From positions 510,001 to 542,000 of the forward strand of contig CP149973.1 of the NCBI GenBank assembly GCA_029269845.2: a stretch of 32,000 nucleotides of DNA, in the 5' to 3' direction. This DNA is from Opitutia bacterium KCR 482 (GTDB lineage Bacteria; Verrucomicrobiota; Verrucomicrobiia; Opitutales; Intestinicryptomonadaceae). Below, piece after piece: positions 5,652 through 29,214 of the stretch. Made by a program: the position numbers and the translations under genes. Below the pieces are notes generated by a model. The model was given only the letters and a program-made list of their open reading frames with translations, had not been told where the DNA came from and made no database searches. How positions within the stretch are numbered: position 1 is the first letter of the stretch; each line of letters begins with the position of its first letter.

Positions 5652-5677
5652 AAAGCGTCGGCAAATAACGGCTTGCG

Positions 5678-5706
5678 ACCGCCCGAAATTTCGGGCGGTT
5701 TTTTTG
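5678..5706 (+). terminator. Rho-independent terminator
   Basis: Perfect palindrome CCGCCCGAAA/TTTCGGGCGG followed by a run of 7 T, 27 nt after the stop at 5651. Confidence 0.7.
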
Positions 5707-5750: not shown

Positions 5751-6593
5751 CTACTCCGACAGCGCGGCGGCGGAGTCGGATTCCAGCGCGGACATGTCGA
5801 TGTCGTCTTTCAGCGCGGTGCCGCTTATTCCGCGCGCGCGCGACTCCTCCATCAGCAGGGAAAGCTTCCGCGCCGCCAAGTCTATCGGCATGCCCGACGG
5901 GCGGATATTCGAAATGCAGTTTCTGTCGGACTCCACGCTAGCCCACTTCGAGCGGTATGTGAAATACGCGCTCAGGCTGTCGGGCGAGCCGAGACCGGGG
6001 CGTTCGCCGACAAGGATAATCGTGTGCCTCGCGCCGAGGATTTCGTTGATGTCGTCCTGAATTTTCACGCGGGCGTAGGGAACGATGAACACGGGGTACG
6101 CCGACCAGTTCTCCTTGGGCAGGTATTTGAACAGCGCGATTGCGGTGTCGGAGGCATGGGCGTTTGCGGCGGTCGCCGAAAGCCCGTCGGAGACGACGAC
6201 CGCGAGGTCGCGGCGTCCCCATTTCGGGGCGAGTTCGGCGAGCGCGGCGCGGGACTCTTCGCAAAGCCTCCGCCCGGCGTCGGGGTTCATAAGATACGTC
6301 CGCTTGTCGGAAACCGTCGTGTGCAAAACGACGCTTTCGAAGCCCGCCTTTTCGAGCTTTTCGGCGATTTTTTCGGGAAAGAACTGCGCGTGAACAGCGT
6401 CGCGCGCGCGGGCGTGCGCAAGGCGGAAATCGAGAAGCGACGGCGTGCGCTGGCTGCCGCCCGCGCGTCCTATGCCGATTCGCGCGGAAGTGTATTTTTG
6501 AAGCCCGACCCACGGATCTGCGCCGCCAATTGCGTTGGGAAGCGAATTCGCGCGGAGGGGAACTTCGGAAATGTCAGTCGATGGCGTGTTCAT
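5751..6593 (-). CDS. eutC: Ethanolamine ammonia-lyase small (light) subunit
   Basis: 280 aa. Collinear by eye with E. coli EutC: ...RIGIGRAGGSQRT..LLDFRLAHARARDAV...VVVSDGLSATA...ILVGERPGLGSPDSLSAYFTY...DRNCISNIRPSG. The N-terminus is short, with no obvious microcompartment-targeting helix. The start overlaps the eutB stop by 20 nt. Confidence 0.9.
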   Translation of the reverse strand: MNTPSTDISEVPLRANSLPNAIGGADPWVGLQKYTSARIGIGRAGGSQRTPSLLDFRLAHARARDAVHAQFFPEKIAEKLEKAGFESVVLHTTVSDKRTYLMNPDAGRRLCEESRAALAELAPKWGRRDLAVVVSDGLSATAANAHASDTAIALFKYLPKENWSAYPVFIVPYARVKIQDDINEILGARHTIILVGERPGLGSPDSLSAYFTYRSKWASVESDRNCISNIRPSGMPIDLAARKLSLLMEESRARGISGTALKDDIDMSALESDSAAALSE

Positions 6594-7965
6594 AGTCGTT
6601 TAGAAATTTGTTGCTTCCGCCGACTTGCAAAACTTTGTTGTCGCGGAAAATTTTCATCTTTTCGAGCCACGCCTCGAATTCGGGCGCGGGGCGCAAGCCC
6701 AGCAGCTGGCGGGCGTAGAGAATGTCGTGGAACGACGTCGTCTGGTAGCCCAGCATGACGTCGTCGCAACCGGGAATACCCATGGCGTAGTTCAGCCCCG
6801 CGGCGGCGAGGAGCGTAAGGAGCGTGTCCATGTCGTCCTGATCCGCCTCGGCGTGGTTCGTGTAGCAGATGTCGCAGCCCATGGGGAGCCCGAGAAGCTT
6901 GCCGCAAAAATGGTCTTCAAGACCGGCGCGGATAATCTGCTTGCCGTCGTAGAGATATTCGGGCCCGATAAAGCCGACGACGGTGTTTACAAGAAGCGGG
7001 CGGAACTCGCGGGCGACGGCGTAGGCGCGGGCCTCGCACGTCTGCATGTCAACGTCCCAGTTTCCCTCGGCGGAGAGAGCCGACCCCTGCCCCGTCTCGA
7101 AGTACATCACGTTGTCGCCGACAGTGCCCCTGCGGAGGGAGAGAGCGGCCTCGTGCGCCTCGCGGATAAGCGAGAGGTTTATGCCGAAATTTTTGTTGGC
7201 GATTTCCGTGCCCGCAATCGACTGGAAAACCAAATCTACGGGCGCGCCGCGCTCCATGGCGGCTATCGCGTTGGTTATGTGCGAAAGCACGCAAGACTGC
7301 GTGGGGATTTCGTAGCGGTGCACAAGCTCGTCGATGAGTTTGAGGATTTCGGTCATCGCGGGGACGCTGTCGGTGGCGGGGTTTATGCCGATTACCGCGT
7401 CGCCGCTGCCGTACAGAAGCCCGTCGAGAATGCCCGAGGCTATCGCTTTGAGGTCGTCCGACGGATCGTTGGGTTGCAGGCGCGAGGAAAACCTGCCTTT
7501 AAGCCCGAGCGTGTCCCTGAACTTCGAAACCACCCTGCGCTTCGACGCAACGAGTATCAAATCCTGATTGCCCATGATTTTCGACACCGCCGCGACCATC
7601 TCTGGCGTAAGCCCCCATGTGAGCTTTTCGAGCGTTTCTCCGTCGGTCTCGTAGCGCAGAAGCCAGTCGCGGAACTCGCCGACGGTAAGCGACGAAACCG
7701 GCTCGAACGCCTTTTTGTCGTGGCGGTCGAGAATCAGCCGCGTTATCTCGTCCTCGTCGTAGGGAACCAGAGGCTCTTCGAGAAACAGGGAAAGGGGAAC
7801 GTCGGCAAGGCACATCTGCGCCGCCACGCGCTCCTCGTAGTCGGCGGCGGCAATCCCCGCAAGAACGTCGCCCGACCTCGCGGGCGACGCCTTTGCCGTC
7901 AACTCTTTCAACGAGCGGAAATTGTGCGTCTTTCCGCCCGTGCATATACTCCAAGTTTTCTTCAT
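6574..7965 (-). CDS. eutB: Ethanolamine ammonia-lyase large (heavy) subunit, adenosylcobalamin-dependent
   Basis: ORF 6574..8508 trimmed to in-frame ATG at 7965 (MKKTWSICTGGKTHNFRSLKELTAKASPARSGDVLAGIAA...), 463 aa. Strong collinear similarity to E. coli EutB: LQPNDPSDD, YFETGQGSALSA, VNTVVGFIGPEYLYDGKQIIRAGLEDHF, GCDICYTNHAEADQ. The upstream 181 codons overlap dctM and are Arg-rich junk. Confidence 0.93.
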   Translation of the reverse strand: MKKTWSICTGGKTHNFRSLKELTAKASPARSGDVLAGIAAADYEERVAAQMCLADVPLSLFLEEPLVPYDEDEITRLILDRHDKKAFEPVSSLTVGEFRDWLLRYETDGETLEKLTWGLTPEMVAAVSKIMGNQDLILVASKRRVVSKFRDTLGLKGRFSSRLQPNDPSDDLKAIASGILDGLLYGSGDAVIGINPATDSVPAMTEILKLIDELVHRYEIPTQSCVLSHITNAIAAMERGAPVDLVFQSIAGTEIANKNFGINLSLIREAHEAALSLRRGTVGDNVMYFETGQGSALSAEGNWDVDMQTCEARAYAVAREFRPLLVNTVVGFIGPEYLYDGKQIIRAGLEDHFCGKLLGLPMGCDICYTNHAEADQDDMDTLLTLLAAAGLNYAMGIPGCDDVMLGYQTTSFHDILYARQLLGLRPAPEFEAWLEKMKIFRDNKVLQVGGSNKFLNDYEHAID

Positions 7966-7973
7966 GGCAAGCT

Positions 7974-9305
7974 CTACATCTTGGTGTTGAACAGCGACGG
8001 CAGCCACAGCGCGATTTGCGGGAATATCATAATCAGAACCAGCGCAAGCAGCATGAGACCGACGAACGGAATAATCGACGCGTAAATGTCGCGGATTGTT
8101 ATGCTCTTCGGGGACATCGCGCGCATAAGGAACAGATTGTATCCGAACGGCGGCGTGATGTACGCTATTTGGCAGGTGATTGTGTAGAGAATCCCGAACC
8201 ATATCGGGTTGAAGCCGAGCTTCATCACAAGCGGTATGTACAGCGGGGCTACGATTACGAGCATCGCGGTGTCGTCGAGGAAAATGCCGAGTATCACGAA
8301 AGACAGTTGCATGAGCAGCAGCACTTGCCACGGCGAAAGCCCCCAGTCGTTGAGGAACAAGCCTTCGAGGGCGCGAACCGCTCCGAGTCCGTCGAAGACC
8401 GCCGCAAACGCGAGAGCCGCCATCATGACCCACATGAACATCGCCGAGTTGTCGAGGGTTTCGCGCAGAATCTTCTTGAAGATTTTCCACGTCAGCCTGC
8501 GGCGGCACAACGCCACCACGAACGCCGCAAACGCGCCGAACGCCGAGCTTTCGACAAGGCTCGTAAGCCCGAAGAAGAACGATCCGATGACCGAAAATAT
8601 CAGAAGAAGCGGGATAATGCCCGCGCTCAAAACCCTGAGCTTTTCCTTCATCGAGAAGTTGCGCTCCTCCTTCGGGAGAATCGGGCCCATCTTCGGGTTA
8701 AGCCTGCACCTGATGAGAATGTAGGCGAGGAAAAGCGCTGTCATCAACAGCCCAGGTCCCACACCCGCCAGCCACAGTTGGCTTACGGGTTGGCGGGCAA
8801 TCATGCCGTAGAGGACAAGCACAATGCTCGGCGGAATCAGAATGCCGAGCGAGCTGCCCGCCTGAATGAGTCCGCTAATCATGCGCTTGTCGTAGTTGCG
8901 CTTCAAAAGTTCGGGCAGCGCGACGCTGCAACCGATTGCCATGCCCGCGACGCTCAAACCGTTCATGCACGAAATCAGAACCATCACAAGCAGAGTTCCC
9001 ACGGCAAGCCCGCCCCTGAGCGAGCCCATCCAGACGTGGAACATGTAGTACATGTCGTTTGCGATGCCCGATTCCGACAGCATGAAGCCCATGAAAACGA
9101 ACATCGGCAGCGTCAGCATGGGATACCAGTTGAATAGCTTGATTGCCGCGTTGAAACCTATCGCCGAGCTGCCGTCGCCCCAGAGGAACAACGCCGCCGC
9201 GACGCCGACAAACCCCATCGCCGCAAATACCCTTTGCCCCGTGAGCATAAGGAGCATGAGCGTGGAGAACATCAGCAGAATAATAATTTCGGGAGAGAGA
9301 CTCAT
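7974..9305 (-). CDS. TRAP transporter large permease subunit (DctM family)
   Basis: 443 aa and highly hydrophobic with multiple TM segments. The N-terminus MSLSPEIIILLMFSTLMLLMLTGQRVFAAMGFVG is typical of DctM. An 8-nt gap separates it from eutB and a 1-nt gap from dctQ. Confidence 0.9.
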   Translation of the reverse strand: MSLSPEIIILLMFSTLMLLMLTGQRVFAAMGFVGVAAALFLWGDGSSAIGFNAAIKLFNWYPMLTLPMFVFMGFMLSESGIANDMYYMFHVWMGSLRGGLAVGTLLVMVLISCMNGLSVAGMAIGCSVALPELLKRNYDKRMISGLIQAGSSLGILIPPSIVLVLYGMIARQPVSQLWLAGVGPGLLMTALFLAYILIRCRLNPKMGPILPKEERNFSMKEKLRVLSAGIIPLLLIFSVIGSFFFGLTSLVESSAFGAFAAFVVALCRRRLTWKIFKKILRETLDNSAMFMWVMMAALAFAAVFDGLGAVRALEGLFLNDWGLSPWQVLLLMQLSFVILGIFLDDTAMLVIVAPLYIPLVMKLGFNPIWFGILYTITCQIAYITPPFGYNLFLMRAMSPKSITIRDIYASIIPFVGLMLLALVLIMIFPQIALWLPSLFNTKM

Positions 9306-9306
9306 A

Positions 9307-9903
9307 TCAATACTTCCTTCCTATTGCCCTGCAAAAATCCTTCAAAAGCTCGGCTACGGCTTGCAGGAACATCAACGCCATACCCGCGGTCATGACAATC
9401 TTGATTGGAGCCATCGGCGGCTTCCAAACGCTGTGGTTGCGCTGGTCGAATTCGAGCGCGAACGCCGAACTGTCCCAGCCGCCCTTCACCATTATGTAGA
9501 GGTAGAACAGCAGGAAAAACACGGTGAAGACGTCCACGATTGCCTTTGTGCGCGGCTTCCACCGCTCGTACAAAAAGTCCATGCGGACGTGTATTCCGTG
9601 TTTGAGGCTGCTTGCGCCACCCAAAATATAATATGCCGCCATCGTAAACTGCGACATCTCCATTACCCATATCACGGGGTGGTGCATTGCGTTGGTGATA
9701 ATGGAATATAAAAGTATGCCCATCATCGCCAAAAGCAGGTACATCGCGCCCTCGCCGACGAACTCGCTGAATTTTCCGACCGAACGAATGTAAAGGCGGA
9801 TAAGCTTCATCATGGGAGCGCCCGTGTTTTCCTTTACCTTCTTCCAGTCCACGGTTTCAAGCCAGTCGTCGAAATCGTCGAATCTCGTTCTTCTGATAAT
9901 CAT
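9307..9903 (-). CDS. TRAP transporter small permease subunit (DctQ family)
   Basis: 198 aa with four predicted TM helices, lying between the P and M subunits. The first 30 residues (MIIRRTRFDDFDDWLETVDWKKVKENTGAP) are hydrophilic. An alternative start at MMKLIRLY (about 9813) is possible. Confidence 0.8.
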   Translation of the reverse strand: MIIRRTRFDDFDDWLETVDWKKVKENTGAPMMKLIRLYIRSVGKFSEFVGEGAMYLLLAMMGILLYSIITNAMHHPVIWVMEMSQFTMAAYYILGGASSLKHGIHVRMDFLYERWKPRTKAIVDVFTVFFLLFYLYIMVKGGWDSSAFALEFDQRNHSVWKPPMAPIKIVMTAGMALMFLQAVAELLKDFCRAIGRKY

Positions 9904-9934
9904 AAAGTCGGAATGTTTGTAGTTTTACGCATCG

Positions 9935-9969
9935 GGGCGCGTCCCGCCCGCTTGGGAGGGAACGCGCCC
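9935..9969 (-). promoter_or_regulatory. Intercistronic GC-rich stem-loop between the TRAP binding-protein gene and the permease genes
   Basis: GGGCGCGTCCC (9935..9945) pairs with GGGAACGCGCCC (9958..9969), giving 11 bp with one bulge and a 12-nt loop. No U-run follows on the minus strand, so it is not a classic terminator. Confidence 0.5.
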
Positions 9970-9991
9970 GACGGTTTTGAAAAAACGCGGT

Positions 9992-11074
9992 TTAGCGGTA
10001 CGGCGAGCCTGCCTTTTCCATCATCGCGTTGTAGTCCCTGAAAATCTTGACGACCTCCTTCTGGCGCGGAGTGCCCTTTGCGACTATCTCGTCCCAGAAT
10101 TTGAGCGCGCCGTCCTCGACGCTCTTCCATTCGTTTTCGGGAATCGTGGTGAGCTTGAGCTTGCCGCCGTTGACGCGCAGGTTCGCCTCGCCCGCCCAGT
10201 ACCAGTATTGGCGGTAGTAGTGCGATGAATCCATGCACAGCTTGAACAGCTCCTGCAAGTGCGGGGGCACTTTCGCCCAGGACTTGCTGTTGGCGACAAA
10301 CGAGCCAATCCACGCGCCCGAAATGTTGTTTGTGAGGAAGTATTTTGTGGCGTTCGCCCAGCCTACCGTGTACGCCTCGGTGATGCCGCACCACACGACG
10401 CCGTCAAGCTCGCCCGTGCGCAACGCCATTTCGATGTCCTCGACGGGAATTGTAATCGGGACGATTCCGAAGCGCGACAGAAACCTGCCCGCCGTCGGGA
10501 ACGTGTAGAGCTTTTTGCCCTTGATGTCGGCGAGCGAGCGAATCGGCTCTTTTGTGATGAAGTTGCAGGGATCCCACGAGCCGGAGCTTAGCCACGTTAC
10601 GTTTTTGACGTCGTTGTAGGAATCCGCCCAGATCTTGCCGAGTCCGAACTCGTTGAAGAGCGCGGGAACGTCGAGCGAATAGCGGGTCGCAAGCGGGAAG
10701 TACGCGCTGAACGGCGCGACGTCGGCGGGAGAGCCCATGGAATCGTCGTCGCTTTGCACGCAGTCGAGAGTGCCTTGTTGGAGCGCGCTGAAAAGCTCGC
10801 TCGTCGGAACGAGTTGGTCGGCGTAGTACAGCTCGATTTTCATCTCGCTGCCCGCTATTTTGTTGAAAGCGTCAACCGCGGGCTTGATTACGTGCGCCCC
10901 GAGCGCGGTGCTCGCGTATGTCTGCAACCTCCACCGAATGGGCTTTTTAGACGCGCCCATTACATACGGAGCGCCGAATGCCGCCGCCGCCCCGACTCCG
11001 AGCTTTTTGAGAAAGCTCCTCTTGTTCATACGTCCAGCGGACGCGACCGAGTTCCTTGCGATGTTTTCGTTCAT
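9992..11074 (-). CDS. TRAP transporter substrate-binding protein (DctP-type, COG4663-like) with Tat-like/Sec signal
   Basis: 360 aa. AAAGGA Shine-Dalgarno about 8 nt upstream of the ATG. Signal region ...MNKRSFLKKLGVGAAAAFGAPYVMGA. The mature part (IRWRLQTYASTALG...GELDGVVWCG...) is typical of TRAP extracytoplasmic solute receptors. Confidence 0.85.
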   Translation of the reverse strand: MNENIARNSVASAGRMNKRSFLKKLGVGAAAAFGAPYVMGASKKPIRWRLQTYASTALGAHVIKPAVDAFNKIAGSEMKIELYYADQLVPTSELFSALQQGTLDCVQSDDDSMGSPADVAPFSAYFPLATRYSLDVPALFNEFGLGKIWADSYNDVKNVTWLSSGSWDPCNFITKEPIRSLADIKGKKLYTFPTAGRFLSRFGIVPITIPVEDIEMALRTGELDGVVWCGITEAYTVGWANATKYFLTNNISGAWIGSFVANSKSWAKVPPHLQELFKLCMDSSHYYRQYWYWAGEANLRVNGGKLKLTTIPENEWKSVEDGALKFWDEIVAKGTPRQKEVVKIFRDYNAMMEKAGSPYR

Positions 11075-11103
11075 TTTATTGTCCTTTCGTTTTTAGGAGT
11101 AAA

Positions 11104-11922
11104 TTAGAAGCCTATCGACGTACCCACGCCGAACCAGATGTTGTTTTCCTTGCCCGCGACAGCCGCGTAGCCGCCGTCGGAGTCGTTATTGCACGCATAG
11201 CGCACGCCCGCGGAGAGTTTCCAGTAGTCGCTTACGGCAACCGTCGCGCCCGCCGAGAAGCCAGCGTAGGCGTAGCCGCCGACTTCGGTCATTCCGCCGA
11301 TGTAGTCGGCATATCCGCCGAACGCCGCCAAGTCTATCGTGCCCCAGTTTTCGCCGAGAACCCATTTTGTGATTGGCGCGGAATACGAAAGCCCCGCCTC
11401 TAATACAGTGCCCGAATATGTCAGGTTGTAGAAGCCGCTGACGTACGGAGACACCGCGAAATCGCCGAGAAATTCGGAAGTGTCGTAGCTGAGCGAAAGT
11501 TTAAGCTCGTTCTCGACGGTCGAACCCGACGACGGATACGTGTACGCAGTGTAGCCGAAATCTACGGTGAAGTTTTCGATTGAATACGTCGCGCCCGCGT
11601 AGAGGTCGTTCTCGCCGTATCCCGCGCCGTCGGTCGAATAGCAGCCCCACCAGCCGATGTACGCGCCGAAGCCCGCGCCGATGTCGTAGGCGATGTCCAC
11701 TTCGGGGCAAACTACCGAGCCGGCAAGCTGTTTTCCCCTGAAAATGAACTCGCTCTCGTATCCGACGGACGCGGACGCCGAGAATTTGGAAAGGACATCG
11801 CTTGCAACCTGCATGTCGGAAAGCGAATTTATTTCCTTTTCGGGTGTTGAAGCGCCGGCCGCAAATGCGGACGCGGCGGCGATTGTCAATGCGCAGGTCA
11901 ATGCTGTAATTTTGTTTGCCAT
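11104..11922 (-). CDS. Outer-membrane beta-barrel protein, TorF/Gcw_chp-type putative porin
   Basis: ORF 11104..12108 trimmed to ATG 11922 (MANKITALTCALTIAAASAFAAG, signal peptide), 272 aa. Alternating aromatic/Gly strands: SVGYESEFIFRGKQL...GAYIGWWGCYS...ENDLYAGATYS...FGYTAYTYP. C-terminal ...WFGVGTSIGF with terminal Phe. Confidence 0.7.
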   Translation of the reverse strand: MANKITALTCALTIAAASAFAAGASTPEKEINSLSDMQVASDVLSKFSASASVGYESEFIFRGKQLAGSVVCPEVDIAYDIGAGFGAYIGWWGCYSTDGAGYGENDLYAGATYSIENFTVDFGYTAYTYPSSGSTVENELKLSLSYDTSEFLGDFAVSPYVSGFYNLTYSGTVLEAGLSYSAPITKWVLGENWGTIDLAAFGGYADYIGGMTEVGGYAYAGFSAGATVAVSDYWKLSAGVRYACNNDSDGGYAAVAGKENNIWFGVGTSIGF

Positions 11923-12095
11923 AGTTTTTTCGTTTGATGTTTGTATTGCGCGTCCGCCGAGCCTCGACGAACACAAAACCCATACAGCAGAAGGCGTGCC
12001 AGTTTTTGGGACGCGCGCAAAGACGCTAAAAATCAAAAACATGGCGCGAAAACGCCGATTCGCGGCGGCATGCGGGCAAAACCGACCGCAACATT

Positions 12096-12176: not shown

Positions 12177-12208
12177 AAAAAAAAGCTCCCCGAAATTTTC
12201 GGAGAGCT
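12177..12208 (-). terminator. Rho-independent terminator of the ABC exporter gene
   Basis: The minus strand reads AGCTCTCCGAAAATTTCGGGGAGCT followed by T8. It is followed by a second perfect 10-bp GC hairpin (12146..12176). Confidence 0.65.
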
Positions 12209-12278: not shown

Positions 12279-14018
12279 CTATTTCGCCGCCTGCTTCTCG
12301 TAGAGCCTGCGGTATTCGGGGCAGCGGTCGATAAGCTCGGAGTGCGTGCCGTAGTCCACTATCGCGCCGTCCTTGAAAACAATTATCATGCGGACGTTGC
12401 GGATTGTGCTGAAACGGTGCGCGATGATTAGCATGGTTCTGTCGCGCATGAGGGAGTCTACCGCCTTCTGAATGAACGCCTCGCTGTTGACGTCGAGCGC
12501 GGAGGTAGCCTCGTCGAGCACGATGAACGGCGGATTTTTCAGGAACACGCGGGCGAGCGCGATGCGCTGTTTCTGCCCGCCGGAGAGCCTGTCGCCGCGC
12601 TCGCCGACGACCGTTTCGTAGCCGTCGTCGAGGCTTTCGATGAACTCGTGCGCATAGGCGGTCTTTGCGGCCGCTATGACTTCGTCGCGAGTGGCGTCGG
12701 GGCGCGCGGCGAGAATGTTGTTGTAGACAGTGTCGTTGAACAAAACGGGATACTGCGGAACGCTGCCGAGATTTTCGACGAAATCGGCGGAAGCAATGTC
12801 GCGCAAATCGACGCCGTCGATTTTCACCGAGCCTGAGACGGGATCGTACAAACGCATCGCAAGCCGCGCGAACGTGCTCTTGCCCGCGCCGCTTTCGCCG
12901 ACGAGCGCGCAGCTCGTGCCTGCGGGAATCACGATGTTCACGCCTTTGAGAACGGTCTTGTTGTTGTACGCAAATTCGACGTTTTCGAAGCGCAGTTCGC
13001 CGCGTACGCGCCCGATTTTCACGGGGTTTGCGGGTTCGGGAACGGTCGTCCGGTAGTCGAGCACGGCGGAGAGGCGTTCGACAAGCGGCATGATTTTCAC
13101 GAAGTCGGTAAACATTCGCGCTATTCTCTTAATGGGGTCGATTGTGAAATAGAGCGCGATGCCGATTGCCGAAAAGGTCGGGAAGTCGATGTCGCCGAAA
13201 TACGCGTAGACGAAAGTTATCGAAACCATCGTAGCCGCGAGGAACTCCATGAACGGCTGCTGCATAAGCTCGAACTTCGCCATTTTAAGCGAGTACCATT
13301 TGACCTCGCCGTTCATGTTGTCGAACTTTTTTATCTGCGGCTGTTGGAGGGCGAAGACCCTGACTTCGTGCGCGGCGTCGAGGTTTTCGCCGAAGAGCTG
13401 CGCCATGTCGCTTAGCTTCACCTGTGCCTTGCCCGCGTAGAGCTTCATGTTTTTGCGTATCATCTGGACGGGCAGAATGCAAAACGGCACAGCCACCAAG
13501 AACACGAGAAGAAACACAACCTGCCCTTTCGTACAGCAAAGATAAAGCAGATAGCCCAACGCGCCCACAACCTGCAAGGGCTGCCTGAATATCTCCGAGG
13601 AGAACGAAAGCAGGACATTCTGGACGGAGACGGTGTCGCTTGTAAGGCGCGTAAGGAGATCGCCCGTGGTGAACTTGTCGAAGAACGCGATTGGGTAGCT
13701 CTGGATTCTGCGGAAAATGTCGCCTTTGAGAGTCCGCAGAATTTCGAGCGACGAATAGGTCATCAAATATCCGCTGAGGTAGCCGAAGATTGCCCTCAGC
13801 GCGAAAATCGTCGGCAGCAGCATTGCGATTCCGAAAATGTACCAGAGCGACTGCTCCTCGACGGTTTTCTCCATGAAGATTTTGCGGAGAACCTTGTCGA
13901 AAATAACGGGCATGCCGAAGCCGCTGCACGCGCCGAACAACGCGCCGAAAATCACCGCCGCCACGAGCTGCGGCAGGCACGGCTTGACGTATACTTTGAA
14001 TCTGAGAAGTTTTTTCAT
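12279..14018 (-). CDS. ABC transporter, fused permease/ATPase (MsbA-like type I exporter)
   Basis: 579 aa. N-terminal six-TM domain, Walker A GESGAGKST, signature LSGGQKQR, Walker B FIVLDEATSALD, H-loop IIAHR. Confidence 0.9.
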   Translation of the reverse strand: MKKLLRFKVYVKPCLPQLVAAVIFGALFGACSGFGMPVIFDKVLRKIFMEKTVEEQSLWYIFGIAMLLPTIFALRAIFGYLSGYLMTYSSLEILRTLKGDIFRRIQSYPIAFFDKFTTGDLLTRLTSDTVSVQNVLLSFSSEIFRQPLQVVGALGYLLYLCCTKGQVVFLLVFLVAVPFCILPVQMIRKNMKLYAGKAQVKLSDMAQLFGENLDAAHEVRVFALQQPQIKKFDNMNGEVKWYSLKMAKFELMQQPFMEFLAATMVSITFVYAYFGDIDFPTFSAIGIALYFTIDPIKRIARMFTDFVKIMPLVERLSAVLDYRTTVPEPANPVKIGRVRGELRFENVEFAYNNKTVLKGVNIVIPAGTSCALVGESGAGKSTFARLAMRLYDPVSGSVKIDGVDLRDIASADFVENLGSVPQYPVLFNDTVYNNILAARPDATRDEVIAAAKTAYAHEFIESLDDGYETVVGERGDRLSGGQKQRIALARVFLKNPPFIVLDEATSALDVNSEAFIQKAVDSLMRDRTMLIIAHRFSTIRNVRMIIVFKDGAIVDYGTHSELIDRCPEYRRLYEKQAAK

Positions 14019-14214
14019 GGAAAATAAGCTTTGGATTTTTCGTAAAATCCGCCCGATTAGTCAAGTTTTTACGCATGCGCGGGCGCGGCGCACAGCCCGA
14101 ACAAAGCGATGGCGCATTCGCAAGGCGGCGCAAAAACCGCGGGACGGTTTTGAGGGGACACGGCGTAAAAATCGGCTTGAAACGGAACGCCGCTTTGCTA
14201 CGCTGTCTCGGAGT

Positions 14215-16428
14215 ATGAAAGCTTCGATGAAGTCGTCTTTGCTGGGGCTGGGGATTTCCGTTACGGTCGTCCCCGCGGTCGCCATGTTCGCCTTCATCGC
14301 GCTGATGGGCTCGGACATCGTAAAAACCGCGAACTCCGAATTCCGCGCCGCCGCCCTCGAAGCCGCGCGTCAGGCGACGGTGGACATCCGCCAAATGTGC
14401 GACGTAATCGAAATCTCCGACGACGTCGCGACGGAGGCGGCAAAAAGCATAATCTCGGAGGAAATCGGCAAGCTCGGCAAAATCTCCGTCGCAAGCAAGC
14501 CGACGTCGTTTTCGGTGTTCCCGCTGGAATCGCCCGAAGCCAAGCAGATTGTGGCGGCGCGGCTGATAAGAATGGGGAACGACGAAATCTCGCCCGACGA
14601 CTTCGACGGAAAGCTCCCCAAGCTGCTCGAATCGCTCAAAGCGCGGCTGTTTTGCGACATCTCGGTATACTCGCCGATTCCGGAGTCTGACTTTTTTGTA
14701 AACGTTGCAAGCACCCTGACCTACCCCACGGGCGAAAGCTATGCCGGCGGCACGGTGTCGCCAAAAGACGGCGGCGGGCTGGGCGCGCTGTTCGCAAAGA
14801 CGCTGGAAACAAAAAGCCCCGCGGGCGGGCTTGTAAAAATCAACTCGGAGCACTACTCGGCAAACTGCGTTCCGCTCGAACGCGACGACGGCCAAATAGG
14901 CGCGGTTGCCGTGTTCGGCTCGCCGATGCCGGCGGTGGCGGAGCTTGAAAAATACCTGCAAAACTCGAACGTGGGCGAAACCGGCTCGGTGTGGGTTATC
15001 GACATTTCGGACCCGTCGTCGCCCGCGCTCACCGTCTCGCGCGACAACTCCGCGGCGGGAAAAATCGAGGACGACCCCATCGATGCCCGCCGCGCCTTCC
15101 TGCGCCAGATTATAGAAAAGAGCCAAAACCTGCGCGACGGCGAAATAGGAGTGGAAACCGTAAACATTCCCTCGAAAGACAGGCGGCGCGACATCGTAAG
15201 GCTTGTAACCTACACAAACTACAAGCCGTGGAAGCGCATAATCGGAACTTCGCTCGACGCCGACGAATTTTCGGGCAGCGAAACCGCCCTGCTCTCGCAG
15301 ATAGACTCGTTTTCGAAAACGATAGTCTACGTCGGCGCGGTGTTCACGGTTTTGGCAATCGGGATTTCGTGGATTTTGGCGTCGCAGATGTCGAGGCCGC
15401 TGAAAATTCTGCGCCGCGTGGCGCGGCACCACTCGCGCGGGAACATGGCGGCGGCGGAGTCCGAACTTGCCGCCTACCGCGACAGGGGCGGCGCGAGAAT
15501 CGCCGAGTTCGACAGCCTGATTCTCGCAATCTACGACATGACAATCGGGCTTTCCGATTTGATAAAATCGATACGCGACGACGGCGAATACGTAGCCGAC
15601 GGCGCAGTGCAGATTTCGGAGCTTGCGCGGTCGCTCGAATCAATCTCGCATTCGGAGGTGGCGTCGATGAGGCGCGTCGCGGCGACGGGGAAATCGATTT
15701 CGTTTTCGGCGGACGCAATCAACAGGGCGGCGCGTTCGTCGGCGGCGCGGGTGCGCAAAACGCTCGACAGCAGCCGCGAAGGCGGCGACAACCTGCTGCT
15801 TCTAAAACGCAACTACGACGCGCTTTTCGCCGCGACGGAAAACGTCGCCGAAAGGCTCTCGGTAATCAACGGCAACGCCGAAAAAATCACGGCGGTGGTC
15901 ACGGCAATCGGCGAAATCAACAAGCGCACGAACCTGCTTTCGCTCAACGCCTCGATAGAGGCGGAAAAAGCGGGGGAAGTCGGGCTTGGCTTCGCGGTAG
16001 TGGCGCGGCAGATACGCAGGCTCGCCGACAAAACCTCGAAAGCGGCTTCCGACATCGAAAACGCCGTAAGGCAGATGCAGTCGGCGGTAAATTCGGGCGT
16101 GATGGAAATGGACAGGTTCGGGGCGAGCATGCGCCAGAGCCTTAAAATCATTCTGGAAACGGCGGACTCGCTTTCGAGGGTCGTGGGCGACATCGAGGGC
16201 GTCGGTCCGAAGTTCGAAAACATCGCGGGGCGCATCGCGGGCATGTCGGACAGCGCGCGCAGAATCAGCGAAACTATGACGGAGCTTTCCGCAAATTCGG
16301 AACGCATGCGCGACACCGTCTTCGAATTCAAGTCGGCGACAAGCTCGCTCGACGCCACGAGCGACTCGCTTCTCGACGAAGTTTCGCGCTTCAAAACCGC
16401 GGGGGAAGGAGGCGTTGCGCGAAAATGA
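14215..16428 (+). CDS. Methyl-accepting chemotaxis protein with periplasmic Cache-type sensor (paralog 1)
   Basis: ORF 13837..16428 trimmed to ATG 14215 (MKASMKSSLLGLGISVTVVPAVAMFAFIALMGSD), 737 aa. Domain order is TM1, Cache-like region (...GQIGAVAVFGSPMP...VGETGSVWVID...), TM2, HAMP-like linker and signalling-domain tip RTNLLSLNASIEAEKAGEVGLGFAVVARQIRRLADKT. Confidence 0.85.
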   Translation: MKASMKSSLLGLGISVTVVPAVAMFAFIALMGSDIVKTANSEFRAAALEAARQATVDIRQMCDVIEISDDVATEAAKSIISEEIGKLGKISVASKPTSFSVFPLESPEAKQIVAARLIRMGNDEISPDDFDGKLPKLLESLKARLFCDISVYSPIPESDFFVNVASTLTYPTGESYAGGTVSPKDGGGLGALFAKTLETKSPAGGLVKINSEHYSANCVPLERDDGQIGAVAVFGSPMPAVAELEKYLQNSNVGETGSVWVIDISDPSSPALTVSRDNSAAGKIEDDPIDARRAFLRQIIEKSQNLRDGEIGVETVNIPSKDRRRDIVRLVTYTNYKPWKRIIGTSLDADEFSGSETALLSQIDSFSKTIVYVGAVFTVLAIGISWILASQMSRPLKILRRVARHHSRGNMAAAESELAAYRDRGGARIAEFDSLILAIYDMTIGLSDLIKSIRDDGEYVADGAVQISELARSLESISHSEVASMRRVAATGKSISFSADAINRAARSSAARVRKTLDSSREGGDNLLLLKRNYDALFAATENVAERLSVINGNAEKITAVVTAIGEINKRTNLLSLNASIEAEKAGEVGLGFAVVARQIRRLADKTSKAASDIENAVRQMQSAVNSGVMEMDRFGASMRQSLKIILETADSLSRVVGDIEGVGPKFENIAGRIAGMSDSARRISETMTELSANSERMRDTVFEFKSATSSLDATSDSLLDEVSRFKTAGEGGVARK

Positions 16429-18638
16429 AAATTCCGCTGAAAAAGACGCTCGCGGCTTTCTCCGTGGGGCTTTCCGCGCTTCCGGTAATCGTCATCGGGC
16501 TTCTCGTGCTGATGATGAACAGCGACATCAGGGAAATCGTAAACTCCGAATTCGACAAAATCGGCGCGCGCGCGACGCGCCAAATTGTGGAAGACACCGT
16601 GCGGATTTGCAAAATAATCCGCCGCACGCAGCTCGACGAAGACGACAAGGCGCGGGACGCCGTCCGCGAACGCCTCTGGAATATCGGCTTTCCGAAACTG
16701 CTCGACAAAAAGGCGAAAATCCGCGTGGCGTCGCAAATGACGCCGACGGAATTCAAGACGGCGGAAATTCCCGCAATGGCTTTCGGCAACAGCGAAATAG
16801 TCTTGAAGATGTCGCCCGACGGCTCGCTCGAAAGGGCGTCGGGACGCGCCGCGGAAATCCTCGAACAGCTTAAAACCGAGACGGGGCTTGACTTCGCGAT
16901 ACTCCAAAAAATCGACGCCGACGGCAACATGCTGCGCATAGCATCGACCGCGCTCGACGCCGAGGGAACGCCCTTTGTGGGCACATACATTCCCGCAAAC
17001 GGCGGCTACGACGACGGCGCGATTGTCCGCACACTGCTTGCCCGCAAGGCGTTTTCGGGAATTTCGCGCGGGGGGGCGGTCAACTTCATCGCAAACTACG
17101 AGCCAATCATAGACCAGTACGGCGACGTTATCGGGGCGGTGGCGTTCGGACGCCCGCAGGCGTCGATTGCGTACCTGCTAAAATATTTCGAAAACATAAG
17201 AATAGGCAACACGGGCTACGTCTGGGCAATAGAGCTTGTCGGGCGCGGCGAGTCGGTTGTGAGGATTTCGCGCGACGGCAAGCGCAACGGCTTCATCGTC
17301 GAGGGAGACACGTTCAGGGAACGGCGCGAGGCGACGCTCGAAATCATAGCCTCCGCCGTCGCGCAGGGCGAAAAAATCACCGTGCGCGACTACAAGTCGG
17401 GAGCGGAGCGCAGCCTCACCGACCTCATAACCGCCTACACATATTTCAAGCCGTGGAACCTCGTGATAGGGTCGAGCGGGTACAGGAACGACTACGCCGC
17501 GGGGGTGGAAAGAATAGACGCCTCCGCGCGAAACTTCGTCTTCATGCTCGTGCCCGTCGGTCTTGCGATGCTCTTCTTTGCGGGCTTTGCGGCGTGGCTT
17601 GCGGGTGTGCGCGGCGTCCAAATGGTGGACGGGCTAAAACGCGCAATCGGGGAAATCAAAGGCGGCGACATTCCCGCCGCGCAGGCGGAACTTGCGGAAC
17701 TTGCCGACCCGCGCCAGTGGAGCAACTCGGAAATTTTCAGGCTGTCGCTCGCGCTCGACACAATGTCGGCAAACATCTCGAAGCTCGTGGCAAAAGTTCA
17801 GGACGCAGGCGAAAACCTCGCCCAAAGCGCGGCGAAAATCTCGTCGGGCGCGGAGGACATAGCAAAGACCACAAGCGCGAGGGCGGAAAGGCTCTCCGAC
17901 ATTCTCGGCACGATAGACTCAATTTCAAACTCGGCGTCGCTGCTCAACGCCGACGCGCTCGACGCGGCAAAAAACATAGAGGCGTCGCTCGAAATCATGA
18001 GCGACGGCGGCAACCTGCTCGGCAGGCTCAACGAAAACGCGGCAATTCTGCTCGGCGCGGCGGACTCCGTTTCGGCGAGGCTTGCGGTCATAAAGGACAA
18101 GACCGAGCGCATTCTCGCGGCAATGTCCACAATCAACGCGGTCAGCGAGCGCACGAACATGCTTTCGCTCAACGCCTCGATTGAGGCGGAACGCGCGGCG
18201 GACGCAAACGGCGGCTTCGCGGCGGTGTCGGCGGAAATCACGCGACTTGCCGACCGCACGGCGGTCGCGGCAATGAACGTCTCGCGCATGGTCGCCGAAA
18301 TGGACGACTCCGTAAACCTCGGCGTGGGCGACATGGACGACTTCGCCGCAAGAATGAAATCGAACTCCGAAATGATAAGCAAAGTTCACGACAACCTCGA
18401 GTCGGCGGAGGGGCAGATTGCGGAGCTTGGCCCGAAGTTCGAGTCGCTCGCGGAGGACGTTTCGGGGCAGGAGAAAAACGCGGGCGCTATCGCCTCGCAA
18501 ACGCAGTCGCTCGCGGAACTTGGCGAGAAAACCCGCGCGCAGGTCGACGCTCTCAGGGAAACCACGGTGTCCATTTCACGCACGTCGGAGGCTCTTGCGG
18601 CAAAGGTTTCGAGCTTCGCGGTAATCCGCAAAAAGTAG
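16425..18638 (+). CDS. Methyl-accepting chemotaxis protein with periplasmic Cache-type sensor (paralog 2)
   Basis: 737 aa. The start overlaps the paralog-1 stop (ATGA). Same architecture: ...[13 protein letters not shown]...[11 protein letters not shown]..., TM2, tip [37 protein letters not shown]. Confidence 0.88.
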   Translation: [737 protein letters not shown]

Positions 18639-18756: not shown

Positions 18757-20721
18757 ATGGAAGAAAAATCGCACATGCAAAAGGCGTCCGACTGGCTTTT
18801 CGAACGCCAACTCCCCGAAGGCTACTGGAACGCGCACCTCGAAACAAACTGCTGCATGGAGGCGCAGTGGCTGATGGCGTGCAAATTCTGCGGAATCGAA
18901 AGCGGAAAAAACGCGGGAATCATAGAATACATTTTGAACTCGCAACGCCACGACGGCAGCTGGGACGTCTACTACGGCGCGGAAAACGGCGACGTCAACA
19001 CGACGCTCGAATGCTACTACGCGCTGCGCATTTTCGGCTTCCCAAAGGACGACCCGCGCATGGCGGCGGCGCGGGAATGGCTGCTGAAATACGAGTGGTA
19101 CAAGCACGTGAGGGTGTTCACAAAATACTGGCTCGCGCTTTTCGGCGAATGGGACTGGTCTAAAACGCCCGCGCTTCCGCCCGAAATAATCTACTTTCCG
19201 AAATGGTTTCCATTCAACATATATCGCTTTGCGGCGTGGGCGCGGGCGACAATCATGCCGCTTTGCGTGGTGACGTCAAAAAAACCCGTCAAGACGCTCG
19301 CGCCGGAGCTTAGAATAGACGAGCTTTTCCCCGTCGGGCGTGAAACCGCCTACGAAATGCGGAAAACCGACGACGGCGAAAAGTTTTCGACTAAAAAAAT
19401 ATTCCTCGCCGCCGACAAAATCTTCCATTTCTTCAACGACAAATCGGGCGACTCCGCCCTGCGCAAACGCGCAATCAAAGACGCCATGGACTGGATTATA
19501 GAGCATCAGGACGACGACGGCTTTTGGGGCGGAATCCAGCCGCCGTGGATTTACGGCATAATTGCGATGCACATTCTGGGCTATCCGCAAACGCAGGAAA
19601 ACATGGCAAAAGCCGTCAACGCCGTCAATTTGCACTGGACGGAGCAGACGGAAAAAGGCACGCGCATAAAGGCGAGCGAAAGCCCCGTGTGGGACACAAT
19701 GCTTGCCGTAAACGCCCTGCTCGACGCCCGCGCGAGCGTTTCAGACTCCCGACTTTCGAAAGCCGTCGACTACCTGCTCGAAAACGAAAACCGCTACTAC
19801 GGCGACTGGTCCGAAACCGTCGGGCGCGGAGTCAAGCCGAGCGGGTGGTCGTTCCAGCGGGCAAACAAATTCTACCCCGACATCGACGACACCGCGGTCG
19901 CGATTGTCGCACTCCTGAAATACCGCGACGCCCTGCCGAAGTCGGATCCGCGCGCCGCGAAAATTTCGGAAGCCATCGGGCGCGCGGCGAAATGGATTGT
20001 CGCAATGCAGTCGAAAAACGGCGGCTGGGCGGCCTTCGACCGCGACAACACAACCGAGCTTGTGACGAAAATCCCGTTCTGCGACTTCGGCGAAGTGCTG
20101 GACCCCCCGAGCGTAGACGTCAGCGCGCACGTCGTGGAGGCCCTGCTCAAATGCGGCTATTCAAAAGACTGCGAGTGCGTCTCGCGCGGCATAAAATTCA
20201 TTCTCGGCGAGCAGGAGGACGACGGCTCGTGGTTCGGCCGCTGGGGAATCAACTATATCTACGGCACTTGGTGCGCGATGACCGCGCTCAAAGCCGCGGG
20301 CTTCGAGTACTCGTCGCCCGAAATCAAACGCGCGGCGGACTGGCTTGCGGGCAGGCAGAACCCCGACGGCGGCTGGGGCGAGCGGGCTTCCACCTACATG
20401 CAGCCTCGCAGCAAAAGCGGCTCGACCGCCTCGCAGACGGCGTGGGCGTTGATTGCGCTGATGTCGTTCGAAACGCCCTACGGCGAAAATATCCGCAGGG
20501 GCTTGGACTACCTCAAAAACACGCAGACCCCCGACGGAACTTGGGTTGAGGCCGAGTACACGGGGACGGGCTTCCCCGGATACGGGCTGGGCGCGAAAGT
20601 CGATTTGCGCAACGGCGCGCCGCTTCCGCAGGGCAAGGAGCTGTCGCGTGGATTCATGCTGCGCTACGGTTATTATTGCCATTACTTCCCGATTATGGCA
20701 CTCTCGCGCGAAATACAATGA
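18757..20721 (+). CDS. shc: Squalene-hopene cyclase (class II terpene cyclase)
   Basis: 654 aa. Catalytic DxDDTA motif (FYPDIDDTAVAIVAL). Repeated QW motifs (QRHDGSWD, HQDDDGFWGG, QSKNGGWAAF, QEDDGSWFGRWG, RQNPDGGWGE, TQTPDGTW). The second Met (MQKASDWLFERQ) is an alternative start. Confidence 0.93.
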   Translation: MEEKSHMQKASDWLFERQLPEGYWNAHLETNCCMEAQWLMACKFCGIESGKNAGIIEYILNSQRHDGSWDVYYGAENGDVNTTLECYYALRIFGFPKDDPRMAAAREWLLKYEWYKHVRVFTKYWLALFGEWDWSKTPALPPEIIYFPKWFPFNIYRFAAWARATIMPLCVVTSKKPVKTLAPELRIDELFPVGRETAYEMRKTDDGEKFSTKKIFLAADKIFHFFNDKSGDSALRKRAIKDAMDWIIEHQDDDGFWGGIQPPWIYGIIAMHILGYPQTQENMAKAVNAVNLHWTEQTEKGTRIKASESPVWDTMLAVNALLDARASVSDSRLSKAVDYLLENENRYYGDWSETVGRGVKPSGWSFQRANKFYPDIDDTAVAIVALLKYRDALPKSDPRAAKISEAIGRAAKWIVAMQSKNGGWAAFDRDNTTELVTKIPFCDFGEVLDPPSVDVSAHVVEALLKCGYSKDCECVSRGIKFILGEQEDDGSWFGRWGINYIYGTWCAMTALKAAGFEYSSPEIKRAADWLAGRQNPDGGWGERASTYMQPRSKSGSTASQTAWALIALMSFETPYGENIRRGLDYLKNTQTPDGTWVEAEYTGTGFPGYGLGAKVDLRNGAPLPQGKELSRGFMLRYGYYCHYFPIMALSREIQ

Positions 20722-27769: not shown

Positions 27770-28176
27770 GGCTTTTCGGAAAAATCGCGGCGGCGCTCGC
27801 CGCCCTCGCGCTGGCGTCCTGCGGGACTCCGAGCGCAAACTTCTACCCGCTGGGAACGGGCGCGGCGCAAAACCTCGCGCCAATCCCCGCCGATAAAGTC
27901 CAGCTCTTCATCACAAAACGCCCCGATTTCAAATACGCGGAACTCGGCATGATAACCTACGAAACGCCATCGTCGTTTTCGGACGAGCCGCGCGTCTACC
28001 AAATCATGCGCGTAAAGGCGGGGGAAATCGGCGCGGACGGGCTGATAATAATGGATTCGCAGTCGTCGTCGGAAAGCTTTCCGCGGATTGCGCTCGACTA
28101 CTACGGCAACCCCATGCTCACCGACACAACACACTCGTACATAAAATACCGCGGCATGGCAATCAGGCGCGAATGA
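27766..28176 (+). CDS. Hypothetical lipoprotein
   Basis: 136 aa. GTG start overlaps the apt stop (GTGA). Lipobox LALASC (MRLFGKIAAALAALALASCGTP). Confidence 0.6.
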   Translation: MRLFGKIAAALAALALASCGTPSANFYPLGTGAAQNLAPIPADKVQLFITKRPDFKYAELGMITYETPSSFSDEPRVYQIMRVKAGEIGADGLIIMDSQSSSESFPRIALDYYGNPMLTDTTHSYIKYRGMAIRRE

Positions 28177-28177
28177 C

Positions 28178-28516
28178 ATGAAATGCCTGCTTCCGATAGT
28201 GCTGCTTGTCCTCTCGAACGTGTTTATGATGTTCGCTTGGTACGGACACCTGAAATTCAAGAGCGCGCCGCTGTGGTTGGCGGTCGTGGCAAGCTGGGGG
28301 ATAGCGTTTTTCGAGTACTGCCTGCAAGTGCCCGCAAACAGAATCGGACACAACTATTGGGACGCCGCGCACCTGAAAACGTTGCAGGAAGTGATAACAC
28401 TGGGAGTGTTCGTAGTGTTCTCTCTGCTGTATCTGAAAGAGGAGTTCAAGTGGAACTACGCGGTTGGATTCGCATTGATGATAGCGGCAGTGTTTTTCGT
28501 GTTCAAGAAATGGTAG
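28178..28516 (+). CDS. Small DMT-superfamily membrane protein (DUF486-like)
   Basis: 112 aa with four hydrophobic segments. The N-terminus MKCLLPIVLLVLSNVFMMFAWYGHLKF is characteristic of the conserved DUF486/DMT family. Confidence 0.75.
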   Translation: MKCLLPIVLLVLSNVFMMFAWYGHLKFKSAPLWLAVVASWGIAFFEYCLQVPANRIGHNYWDAAHLKTLQEVITLGVFVVFSLLYLKEEFKWNYAVGFALMIAAVFFVFKKW

Positions 28517-28594
28517 CGTTGGCGGGAATAAAAAACCGAAAAAAACACTTGCCATAGGCAAAAAAAGCTATTGCATAAGTCGGATAAAAATTTC

Positions 28595-28672
<78 letters not shown>

Positions 28673-28676
28673 AAAA

Positions 28677-28711
28677 ATAAGGGACTTCCGCAAGAAGTCC
28701 TTTATTTTTTT
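28677..28711 (+). terminator. Rho-independent terminator after tRNA-Thr
   Basis: ATAAGGGACTTC-cgcaa-GAAGTCCTTTAT (12-bp stem) followed by a T-run. Confidence 0.6.
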
Positions 28712-28797
28712 ACACTTACAGATGCGCGAAGTTGTACCGATTGCCCGCATGATATACCCTTAAAAAACACATTTGGGGCAAAAAAAGCTATATTTTT

Positions 28798-28816
28798 GCC
28801 TACCTGCCGCCTACCA
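28798..28816 (+). repeat. 19-bp direct repeat, copy A (GCCTACCTGCCGCCTACCA)
   Basis: Perfect copy at 30127..30145. Followed by TTTGCGGGC, whose reverse complement GCCCGCAAA follows copy B. Confidence 0.8.
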
Positions 28817-28889
28817 TTTGCGGGCGTATAGTAAACAAAATATCAATAGGTAAAAGCGGGCTGCATAAATGCCCGAGTCTCTATATCAA

Positions 28890-28902
28890 GGTTTATTAAA
28901 CC
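28890..28902. promoter_or_regulatory. 13-bp perfect palindrome GGTTTATTAAACC, copy 1 (downstream of the RHH gene)
   Basis: 6-1-6 palindrome. An identical copy lies at 29132..29144. Confidence 0.4.
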
Positions 28903-28925
28903 GCGTTTTGCGCTATTTATCATCT

Positions 28926-29096
28926 TTATCCTTTTTTTACTCGCTTTATCTCCGCGACGTATTGAGTTATTGCGTCGCGGATTATATCCGACAAAGCCAC
29001 ACCGTATTTTTGCGCCAAAACACGAGCGTCCGCCACAAGCTTCTTTTCGAGTGCAGCAGATATTCGTTCTTTTTTTGGCGATAATTTGTTGGGCAT
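28926..29096 (-). CDS. Ribbon-helix-helix (CopG/Arc/MetJ-type) DNA-binding protein, 56 aa
   Basis: Below the ORF-track size cutoff and found by hand translation: MPNKLSPKKERISAALEKKLVADARVLAQKYGVALSDIIRDAITQYVAEIKRVKKG. It shows a basic tail, a short beta-strand (ERISAAL) and two helices, which is the RHH_1 pattern. The listed 103-aa ORF 28843..29154 is a different frame of the same strand and looks spurious. Confidence 0.6.
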   Translation of the reverse strand: MPNKLSPKKERISAALEKKLVADARVLAQKYGVALSDIIRDAITQYVAEIKRVKKG

Positions 29097-29131
29097 TGTC
29101 AATCATTTTTTGATTGTCGGCAAAAAAAGCA

Positions 29132-29144
29132 GGTTTATTAAACC
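29132..29144. promoter_or_regulatory. 13-bp perfect palindrome GGTTTATTAAACC, copy 2 (in the divergent RHH/exonuclease promoter region)
   Basis: Directly abuts CTTGTCAAC (29144..29152). That sequence reads TTGTCA on the plus strand and TTGACA on the minus strand, so the -35-like boxes are shared. Confidence 0.4.
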
Positions 29145-29214
29145 TTGTCAACACTTTTTTTAAAAAATAAAAAAACTTTTGACGCCGCCGAAAAAAATCG
29201 GGAAAATAAAAAAT

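Follow-up and report, generated by a model that had tools for sequence, protein, structure and literature searches.

Among gut nutrients ethanolamine is a major one, and most discussion of how it is used concerns enteric pathogens that combine the transporters Eat or EutH with microcompartments. These two were the only ethanolamine transporters named in a 2018 review of the field (PMC5821096). A different type of uptake has been described among transporters of the tripartite ATP-independent periplasmic (TRAP) type. As a general rule most TRAP binding proteins hold carboxylates via a conserved Arg, and Fischer et al. 2015 reported Csal_0678 as a TRAP binding protein without an equivalent of this residue (Arg147) and with an atypical ligand (PMC4646407). 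Csal_0678 of Chromohalobacter salexigens was crystallised with ethanolamine (PDB 4UAB; Vetting et al. 2015; PMC12410723, PMC4646407), a ligand which a 2018 review, where the family again features as an exception to the Arg rule, called ‘a particular surprise’ (PMC5812351). EtoX, the homologue from Phaeobacter sp. MED193, binds ethanolamine with a dissociation constant of 7.9 µM and showed no binding of phosphoethanolamine, glycerol phosphates or phosphocholine (PMC10132767). Transporters of this Csal_0678/EtoXWV type feed a gamma-glutamyl ethanolamine pathway made up of a glutamine synthetase (GS)-like ligase, dehydrogenases and an FGase-type amidohydrolase (PMC10132767). The other relevant system is the short eut operon of Pseudomonas aeruginosa, i.e., PA4022-eat-eutBC under EatR/RpoN control (PMC5821096), and in Acinetobacter EutBC functions without a shell or EutA (PMC9426561). 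Here, we describe a locus of Opitutia bacterium KCR 482 in which a TRAP transporter of the Csal_0678/EtoX type is encoded together with the B12-dependent enzyme EutBC. The window, i.e., the whole 32,000-nucleotide stretch that was analysed, covers positions 510001–542000 (contig CP149973.1) of a 2.30-Mb genome assembled as a single contig.

The locus comprises six genes running in one direction on the minus strand, which were confirmed by an open reading frame (ORF) listing together with Pfam and NCBIfam scans: an outer-membrane beta-barrel gene (11104–11922), dctP for the TRAP solute-binding protein (9992–11074), dctQ and dctM for the small and large TRAP membrane subunits (9307–9903 and 7974–9305), and eutB and eutC for the large and small subunits of ethanolamine ammonia-lyase (6574–7965 and 5751–6593). 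The tight packing described in the initial annotation was borne out, with spacers of 29 nt (barrel-dctP), 88 nt (dctP-dctQ), 1 nt (dctQ-dctM) and 8 nt (dctM-eutB) and an overlap of 20 nt between eutB and eutC. We read these genes, with high confidence, as a predicted metabolosome-free ‘short’ ethanolamine-utilisation operon in which an EtoX/Csal_0678-type TRAP transporter would take over the uptake that Eat or EutH perform elsewhere. The locus resembles Csal_0678 and EtoXWV in the family of its binding protein, in an aromatic residue in place of the Arg, in the adjacency of DctQ and DctM and, putatively, in a Glu platform with aromatic residues; it differs from them in having EutBC as its partner, in carrying Tyr rather than Phe at position 190 and in the addition of a barrel gene and a sigma-54-type promoter. 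It resembles the eutBC systems of P. aeruginosa and Acinetobacter baumannii (PMC9426561) in that shell genes, EutA and EutT are absent and a PduO-type adenosyltransferase is encoded elsewhere, and unlike them it uses TRAP rather than Eat or EutH, lacks an aldehyde dehydrogenase in the operon and an adjacent activator, and belongs to an anaerobic gut verrucomicrobium. The closest public relatives of the locus are from uncultured gut Opitutales, including human-gut metagenome-assembled genomes (MAGs) and ‘Candidatus Merdousia’.

The evidence on uptake comes largely from the binding protein, which is the sole DctP-family protein of the genome (PF03480, 1.3e-19; Met16 may be the true start). DctP matched PDB 4UAB and 4XF5, which share one chain sequence, at E 2.5e-143 and 481 bits, with residues 39–360 aligned to chain positions 24–343, i.e., over the whole mature length, and the next-best PDB match was at 1e-15. 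In alignments, the column equivalent to Arg147 of SiaP is occupied by Tyr190 in DctP, by Arg in 4YZZ and by Phe in Csal_0678. All 63 classified homologues have Tyr or Phe in this column: Tyr in 26 of the 31 proteins linked to EutBC and Phe in 31 of the 32 without EutBC nearby. Furthermore, 103 positions are invariant across 81 family members, among which are E233 of a GITE motif and numerous aromatic residues (Trp, Tyr and Phe). By these alignments, DctP is assigned to the ethanolamine-specific Csal_0678/EtoX type, and the carboxylate-clamping Arg, whose presence the initial annotation had suggested checking, is absent and replaced by Tyr190. The membrane subunits were recognised as DctM (PF06808, 1.1e-69; TIGR00786, 274.7 bits against a cut-off of 268) and DctQ (PF04290, 7.7e-24; alternative start at 9813). 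A TRAP route for ethanolamine is supported by this predicted assignment, but the transporter class has been known since 2015 and is not new. Of the ‘unrecognised TRAP route’ which had been proposed for this DNA, the ethanolamine function stands, given the closeness to Csal_0678, and the word ‘unrecognised’ does not, as the family is published.

The enzyme encoded downstream of the transporter appears conventional. EutB (PF06751, 5.6e-213; NF011649, 700 bits with a cut-off of 554) is the single EutB of the genome, it matched PDB 2QEZ at 6e-146 and 3ABO at 1.6e-143, and it aligned end to end with the large subunits of Listeria and E. coli. EutC (PF05985, 3.5e-80) scored 279.9 bits against the NCBIfam equivalog NF003971, which has a cut-off of 230, so that both subunits, encoded by adjacent genes, exceed the curated NCBI cut-offs. 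Judged by sequence, EutBC here is an ethanolamine ammonia-lyase. The Pfam domain of EutC begins at residue 26 of 280, in agreement with the earlier statement that the protein has no long N-terminal targeting extension. In some other Opitutales operons two tandem full-length eutB genes, both scoring at around 1e-210 against PF06751, precede a single eutC (L013:13117–15899, L028:13075–15838 and G148:C1:58168–60841), and in one Opitutales MAG a gene for a channel of the formate/nitrite-transporter family follows directly after eutC (L028:16736–17521).

The association between the importer and the enzyme is conserved. Species-representative genomes were searched with DctP and subsequently with all six proteins by tblastn, which gave 80 related loci, and the order dctP-dctQ-dctM-eutB-eutC was kept in 33 of these. 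The EutBC-linked loci belong to gut Opitutales, Opitutaceae, Verrucomicrobiales and Kiritimatiellia, to a single Acidobacteriota MAG, and to betaproteobacterial MAGs of Zoogloeaceae and Accumulibacter. The remaining loci are mainly from Proteobacteria and are without EutBC; in two of them (L050 and L048) FGase is encoded alongside a GS-like ligase, an aldehyde dehydrogenase and a GMC oxidoreductase, i.e., the published gamma-glutamyl route. In a quick maximum-likelihood tree of DctP, the proteobacterial proteins for which no EutBC was found form one clade of 48 with a support of 99, although 18 of these stem from contigs whose shortness prevents classification. Unlike Csal_0678 and EtoXWV, the EutBC-linked DctPs fall outside this clade, and two changes along the tree suffice to explain the EutBC label. 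Among 151 sampled genomes of the order, four carry this type of DctP, each with EutB at a distance of 2–3 kb. The TRAP-eutBC module is accessory, because this DctP is missing from two of the three other species of the same genus. In several Kiritimatiellia-like loci (L073, L074, L075, L078 and L080) the dctQ and dctM matches are separated by approximately 740 nt, compared with 1 nt here.

A sigma-54-type -24/-12 element, TGGCACGCCTTCTGCT, is located on the minus strand at 11986–12001, 63 nt before the ATG of the barrel gene. It is the single match to TGGCAC-N5-YTGCW in the 32-kb window, in which 0.03 matches would be expected by chance. Of 30 EutBC-linked loci, 19 have a match to the slightly broader TGGCAY-N5-YTGCW ahead of their first operon gene, compared with 1 of 50 loci without EutBC. 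In these related loci the element lies before the barrel gene if one is present and otherwise 42–160 nt before dctP, and it is mostly unique within about 20 kb. A sigma-70 promoter scan of the window returned nothing that exceeds chance, and the one Rfam match in the window was a tRNA, with no B12 riboswitch close to the operon. RpoN is encoded in the genome, as are four strong enhancer-binding proteins, and the pattern of the element suggests that the operon is probably driven by sigma-54. Among the four, the first candidate for activating the promoter is encoded at 116197–117705 of the genome. As with EatR/RpoN control in P. aeruginosa, this would pair the -24/-12 promoter with an activator in the Opitutaceae versions of the operon, which are adjoined by a gene for an activator with GAF, sigma-54 and helix-turn-helix domains; the best match to this activator in the present genome has 45% identity and lies about 400 kb away.

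Domain scans agree with the earlier description that the window is without eutA, eutT, shell genes, an aldehyde dehydrogenase or a regulator, and the components of a Eut metabolosome (shell genes, EutA, EutT and an EutC encapsulation peptide) are lacking at the eutBC locus. The absence of a known ethanolamine permease likewise held and reaches beyond the window, as neither EutH nor an Eat-type permease was found in genome-wide searches. The genome-wide search for EutA gave only a partial match in an unrelated 518-aa frame, and this candidate was rejected, since it scored 29 bits over part of the model. A single PduO-type adenosyltransferase, a single cobalamin riboswitch and one Fe-alcohol dehydrogenase are present in the genome. 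In three sister loci dctP is immediately preceded by a gene for a PduO-type adenosyltransferase, which stands where the barrel gene does here (L009:9188–9772, L011:9121–9714 and L012:9189–9707). The claim that there is no microcompartment was true of the window and not of the genome: a bacterial microcompartment (BMC) locus at C1:1941957–1949185, 1.43 Mb from eutBC, encodes PTAC, three BMC-H and two EutN-type proteins, an aldehyde dehydrogenase and a class II aldolase, together with a candidate acetate-kinase-like gene read from its N-terminal sequence. This composition is that of the sugar-aldehyde compartment of Planctomycetes and Verrucomicrobia (PVM-like).

The first gene of the operon encodes a protein of 272 aa with an N-terminal hydrophobic signal of the Sec type and a C-terminal Phe, both read from the sequence. 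An exhaustive phmmer search with this protein returned 237 relatives, and 39 of 68 aligned homologues matched PF09694 (Gcw_chp; best 5e-18), known in NCBI naming as ‘TorF family putative porin’. Its AlphaFold (AF2) model reached a predicted local distance difference test score (pLDDT) of 87 and a predicted template modelling score of 0.81, and formed a small barrel of about 12–14 strands which Foldseek matched to OmpG, PcoB, NanC and Tsx (E 1e-5 to 2e-8). The best ESM Atlas match was a verrucomicrobial cluster with 98% Gcw_chp members (TM 0.84). The barrel gene lies directly upstream of dctP in ten EutBC-linked loci from two lineages: tblastn detected it in the six nearest loci only, and a profile search and hhalign (probability 99.3%) placed it at the same position in four more loci, from a Kiritimatiellia-like group. 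ORFs upstream of dctP in three other cases (L019, L044 and L073) matched neither Pfam nor the barrel profile. One contig filed under ‘Lachnospira hominis’ (L075, CAVCJC010000043.1) carries a barrel-dctPQM-eutBC operon; in the tree it groups with UBA MAGs of Verrucomicrobiota, within a clade whose other members are Kiritimatiellia, and it is probably mis-binned.

Two other substrates have to be weighed against ethanolamine. The initial annotation had raised the possibility that this EutBC pair acts on an acidic or anionic substrate of the amino-alcohol type brought in by a conventional carboxylate-binding TRAP transporter, for which the one argument is the general Arg/carboxylate rule of TRAP binding proteins (PMC4646407). 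This proposal fails because the equivalent of the Arg is Tyr190, the nearest solved relative binds ethanolamine, and EutBC is canonical, with both subunits above the ethanolamine ammonia-lyase cut-offs and EutB aligned end to end, and we regard it as extremely improbable. An operon for aminopropanol catabolism, with another short amino alcohol such as 2-amino-1-propanol or 1-amino-2-propanol as its substrate, would agree with the five alignment columns at which EutBC-linked binding proteins differ from the others and with their Tyr rather than Phe at 190. Ethanolamine ammonia-lyase slowly turns over 2-aminopropanols, and PDB 4XF5 reportedly contains an aminopropanol. However, the overall similarity of DctP to the ethanolamine-bound protein is very high, with the 103 invariant positions, the scores of EutB and EutC are those of an ordinary ethanolamine ammonia-lyase, and ethanolamine is abundant in the gut (PMC5821096), which makes an aminopropanol an unlikely substrate. 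Some points nevertheless weigh against ethanolamine uptake and cleavage as we read them here. E233 aligns with a Glu at chain position 217 of 4UAB, and its equivalence to Glu220 assumes a numbering offset of three residues; the AlphaFold model of DctP, built from a 21-sequence alignment, had a pLDDT of 50 and was too poor for a view of the pocket; and domain scans found no gene for an enhancer-binding protein or other regulator beside the operon in the window.

The role of the barrel is more open to argument. We tentatively suggest, while leaning towards doubt, that it could be a substrate-linked channel for ethanolamine or small cationic amines, whose induction would be shared, via sigma-54, by the TRAP importer and EutBC. 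It is a serious possibility, to which we give somewhat under an even chance, that the barrel is instead a general porin or a structural protein of the outer membrane, co-transcribed by chance and with no specific part in ethanolamine uptake. Several findings count against a dedicated channel. Three further barrel paralogues are present in the genome, two of which score as high as the operon copy and lack transporter neighbours, and the neighbours of the paralogues were uninformative; because of these paralogues, the family may be the ordinary porin type of this clade, from which one copy was recruited into the operon. The barrel gene was undetected in 23 of the 33 EutBC-linked loci, a few of which are on contigs that end too near dctP to tell, and ethanolamine, at 61 Da, is small enough for general porins. 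No member of the Gcw_chp barrel family has a demonstrated substrate or function, and the window protein itself matched no Pfam or NCBIfam model, PF09694 being absent even at E up to 10. Therefore, the label ‘TorF-type’ given to it in the initial annotation has only indirect support, from the well-predicted barrel model and its structural match and, as a family name, transitively through the homologues. Against a general porin stands the location of the barrel gene, which in two lineages has the conserved sigma-54 element on one side and dctP on the other, the binding proteins of the four Kiritimatiellia-like loci being only 64–70% identical to the DctP of the window, and in the profile search the gene was beside none of 47 loci without EutBC. 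The strongest argument in this analysis for counting the barrel gene as part of the operon is the position of the sigma-54 element upstream of it. If a substrate-linked channel were confirmed, a widespread barrel family of unknown function would for the first time have a functional setting, and the locus would describe a complete envelope-spanning ethanolamine route in gut bacteria of the Planctomycetes-Verrucomicrobia-Chlamydiae (PVC) group that differs from Eat/EutH as well as from the gamma-glutamyl pathway.

With ethanolamine as the preferred substrate, the proposed route would begin with one sigma-54 promoter driving all six genes, as the conserved -24/-12 element suggests. The small Gcw_chp-like barrel may then pass ethanolamine across the outer membrane, a step proposed from gene position, and periplasmic DctP would capture it in a pocket of aromatic residues that has Glu as its platform and lacks the Arg, by homology to the solved ethanolamine complex. 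DctQM, from its family membership, would move ethanolamine into the cytoplasm. There, free EutBC, an enzyme whose identity is indicated by its sequence, would split it into ammonia and acetaldehyde, presumably with adenosylcobalamin supplied by the single PduO-type adenosyltransferase. More speculatively, acetaldehyde may pass to unlinked enzymes, with the acylating aldehyde dehydrogenase, PTAC and acetate-kinase-like gene of the PVM-like BMC locus, or the Fe-alcohol dehydrogenase, as candidates.

The operon is delimited on both sides. Upstream, the strong terminator of the preceding ABC-transporter gene (12184–12208, minus strand) consists of an 11-pair stem followed by TTTTTTTT, and downstream, a hairpin at 5677–5700 lies between eutC and a converging FAD-oxidoreductase gene. 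On the plus strand this hairpin is terminator-like, with a 10-pair stem and a T-run, and on the minus strand it stands 51 nt past the eutC stop without a T-run. Within the operon, the 88-nt dctP-dctQ spacer folds at -34.5 kcal/mol (z = -3.0), and none of 200 shuffles was as stable; it contains a GC-rich stem-loop without a U-tract (9935–9969, minus strand), which may stabilise the upstream binding-protein message.

Other observations concern the surroundings of the locus. In two libraries from wastewater that bear the label RNA-Seq and could be DNA, 6–10% of sampled words were found together with a few short contigs identical to the window; one such contig crosses the dctM/eutB junction (7843–8085), and as these contigs cannot show a single transcript they were not used as evidence. 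About 2 kb from the operon, past the ABC-transporter gene, two tandem genes for methyl-accepting chemotaxis proteins with Cache_3-Cache_2 sensors are located at 13837–18638 on the plus strand; Cache domains sense ethanolamine in Vibrio (PMC12410723). They are followed by a squalene-hopene cyclase gene (18757–20721, plus strand). A tRNA gene at 28595–28667 sits within a stretch of lower G+C content (28000–30000; 0.45–0.47, compared with about 0.57 elsewhere).

A TRAP-eutBC arrangement, or a verrucomicrobial version of it, was not described in the full-text literature that was searched, which included neither Vetting et al. 2015 nor Tsoy et al. 2009. What seems to be new here is that this importer is combined with EutBC and a conserved sigma-54 promoter, to which two lineages add the barrel gene. 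The locus provides a possible substrate context for an uncharacterised barrel family, and current understanding is not overturned by it. Two fates of TRAP-imported ethanolamine, i.e., gamma-glutamylation and B12-dependent deamination, map to two separable branches of one binding-protein family. Commensal gut Opitutales, other Verrucomicrobiota and Kiritimatiellota are predicted to have a high-affinity, binding-protein-dependent importer wired to EutBC, and such an importer would permit them to compete for ethanolamine at low concentrations.

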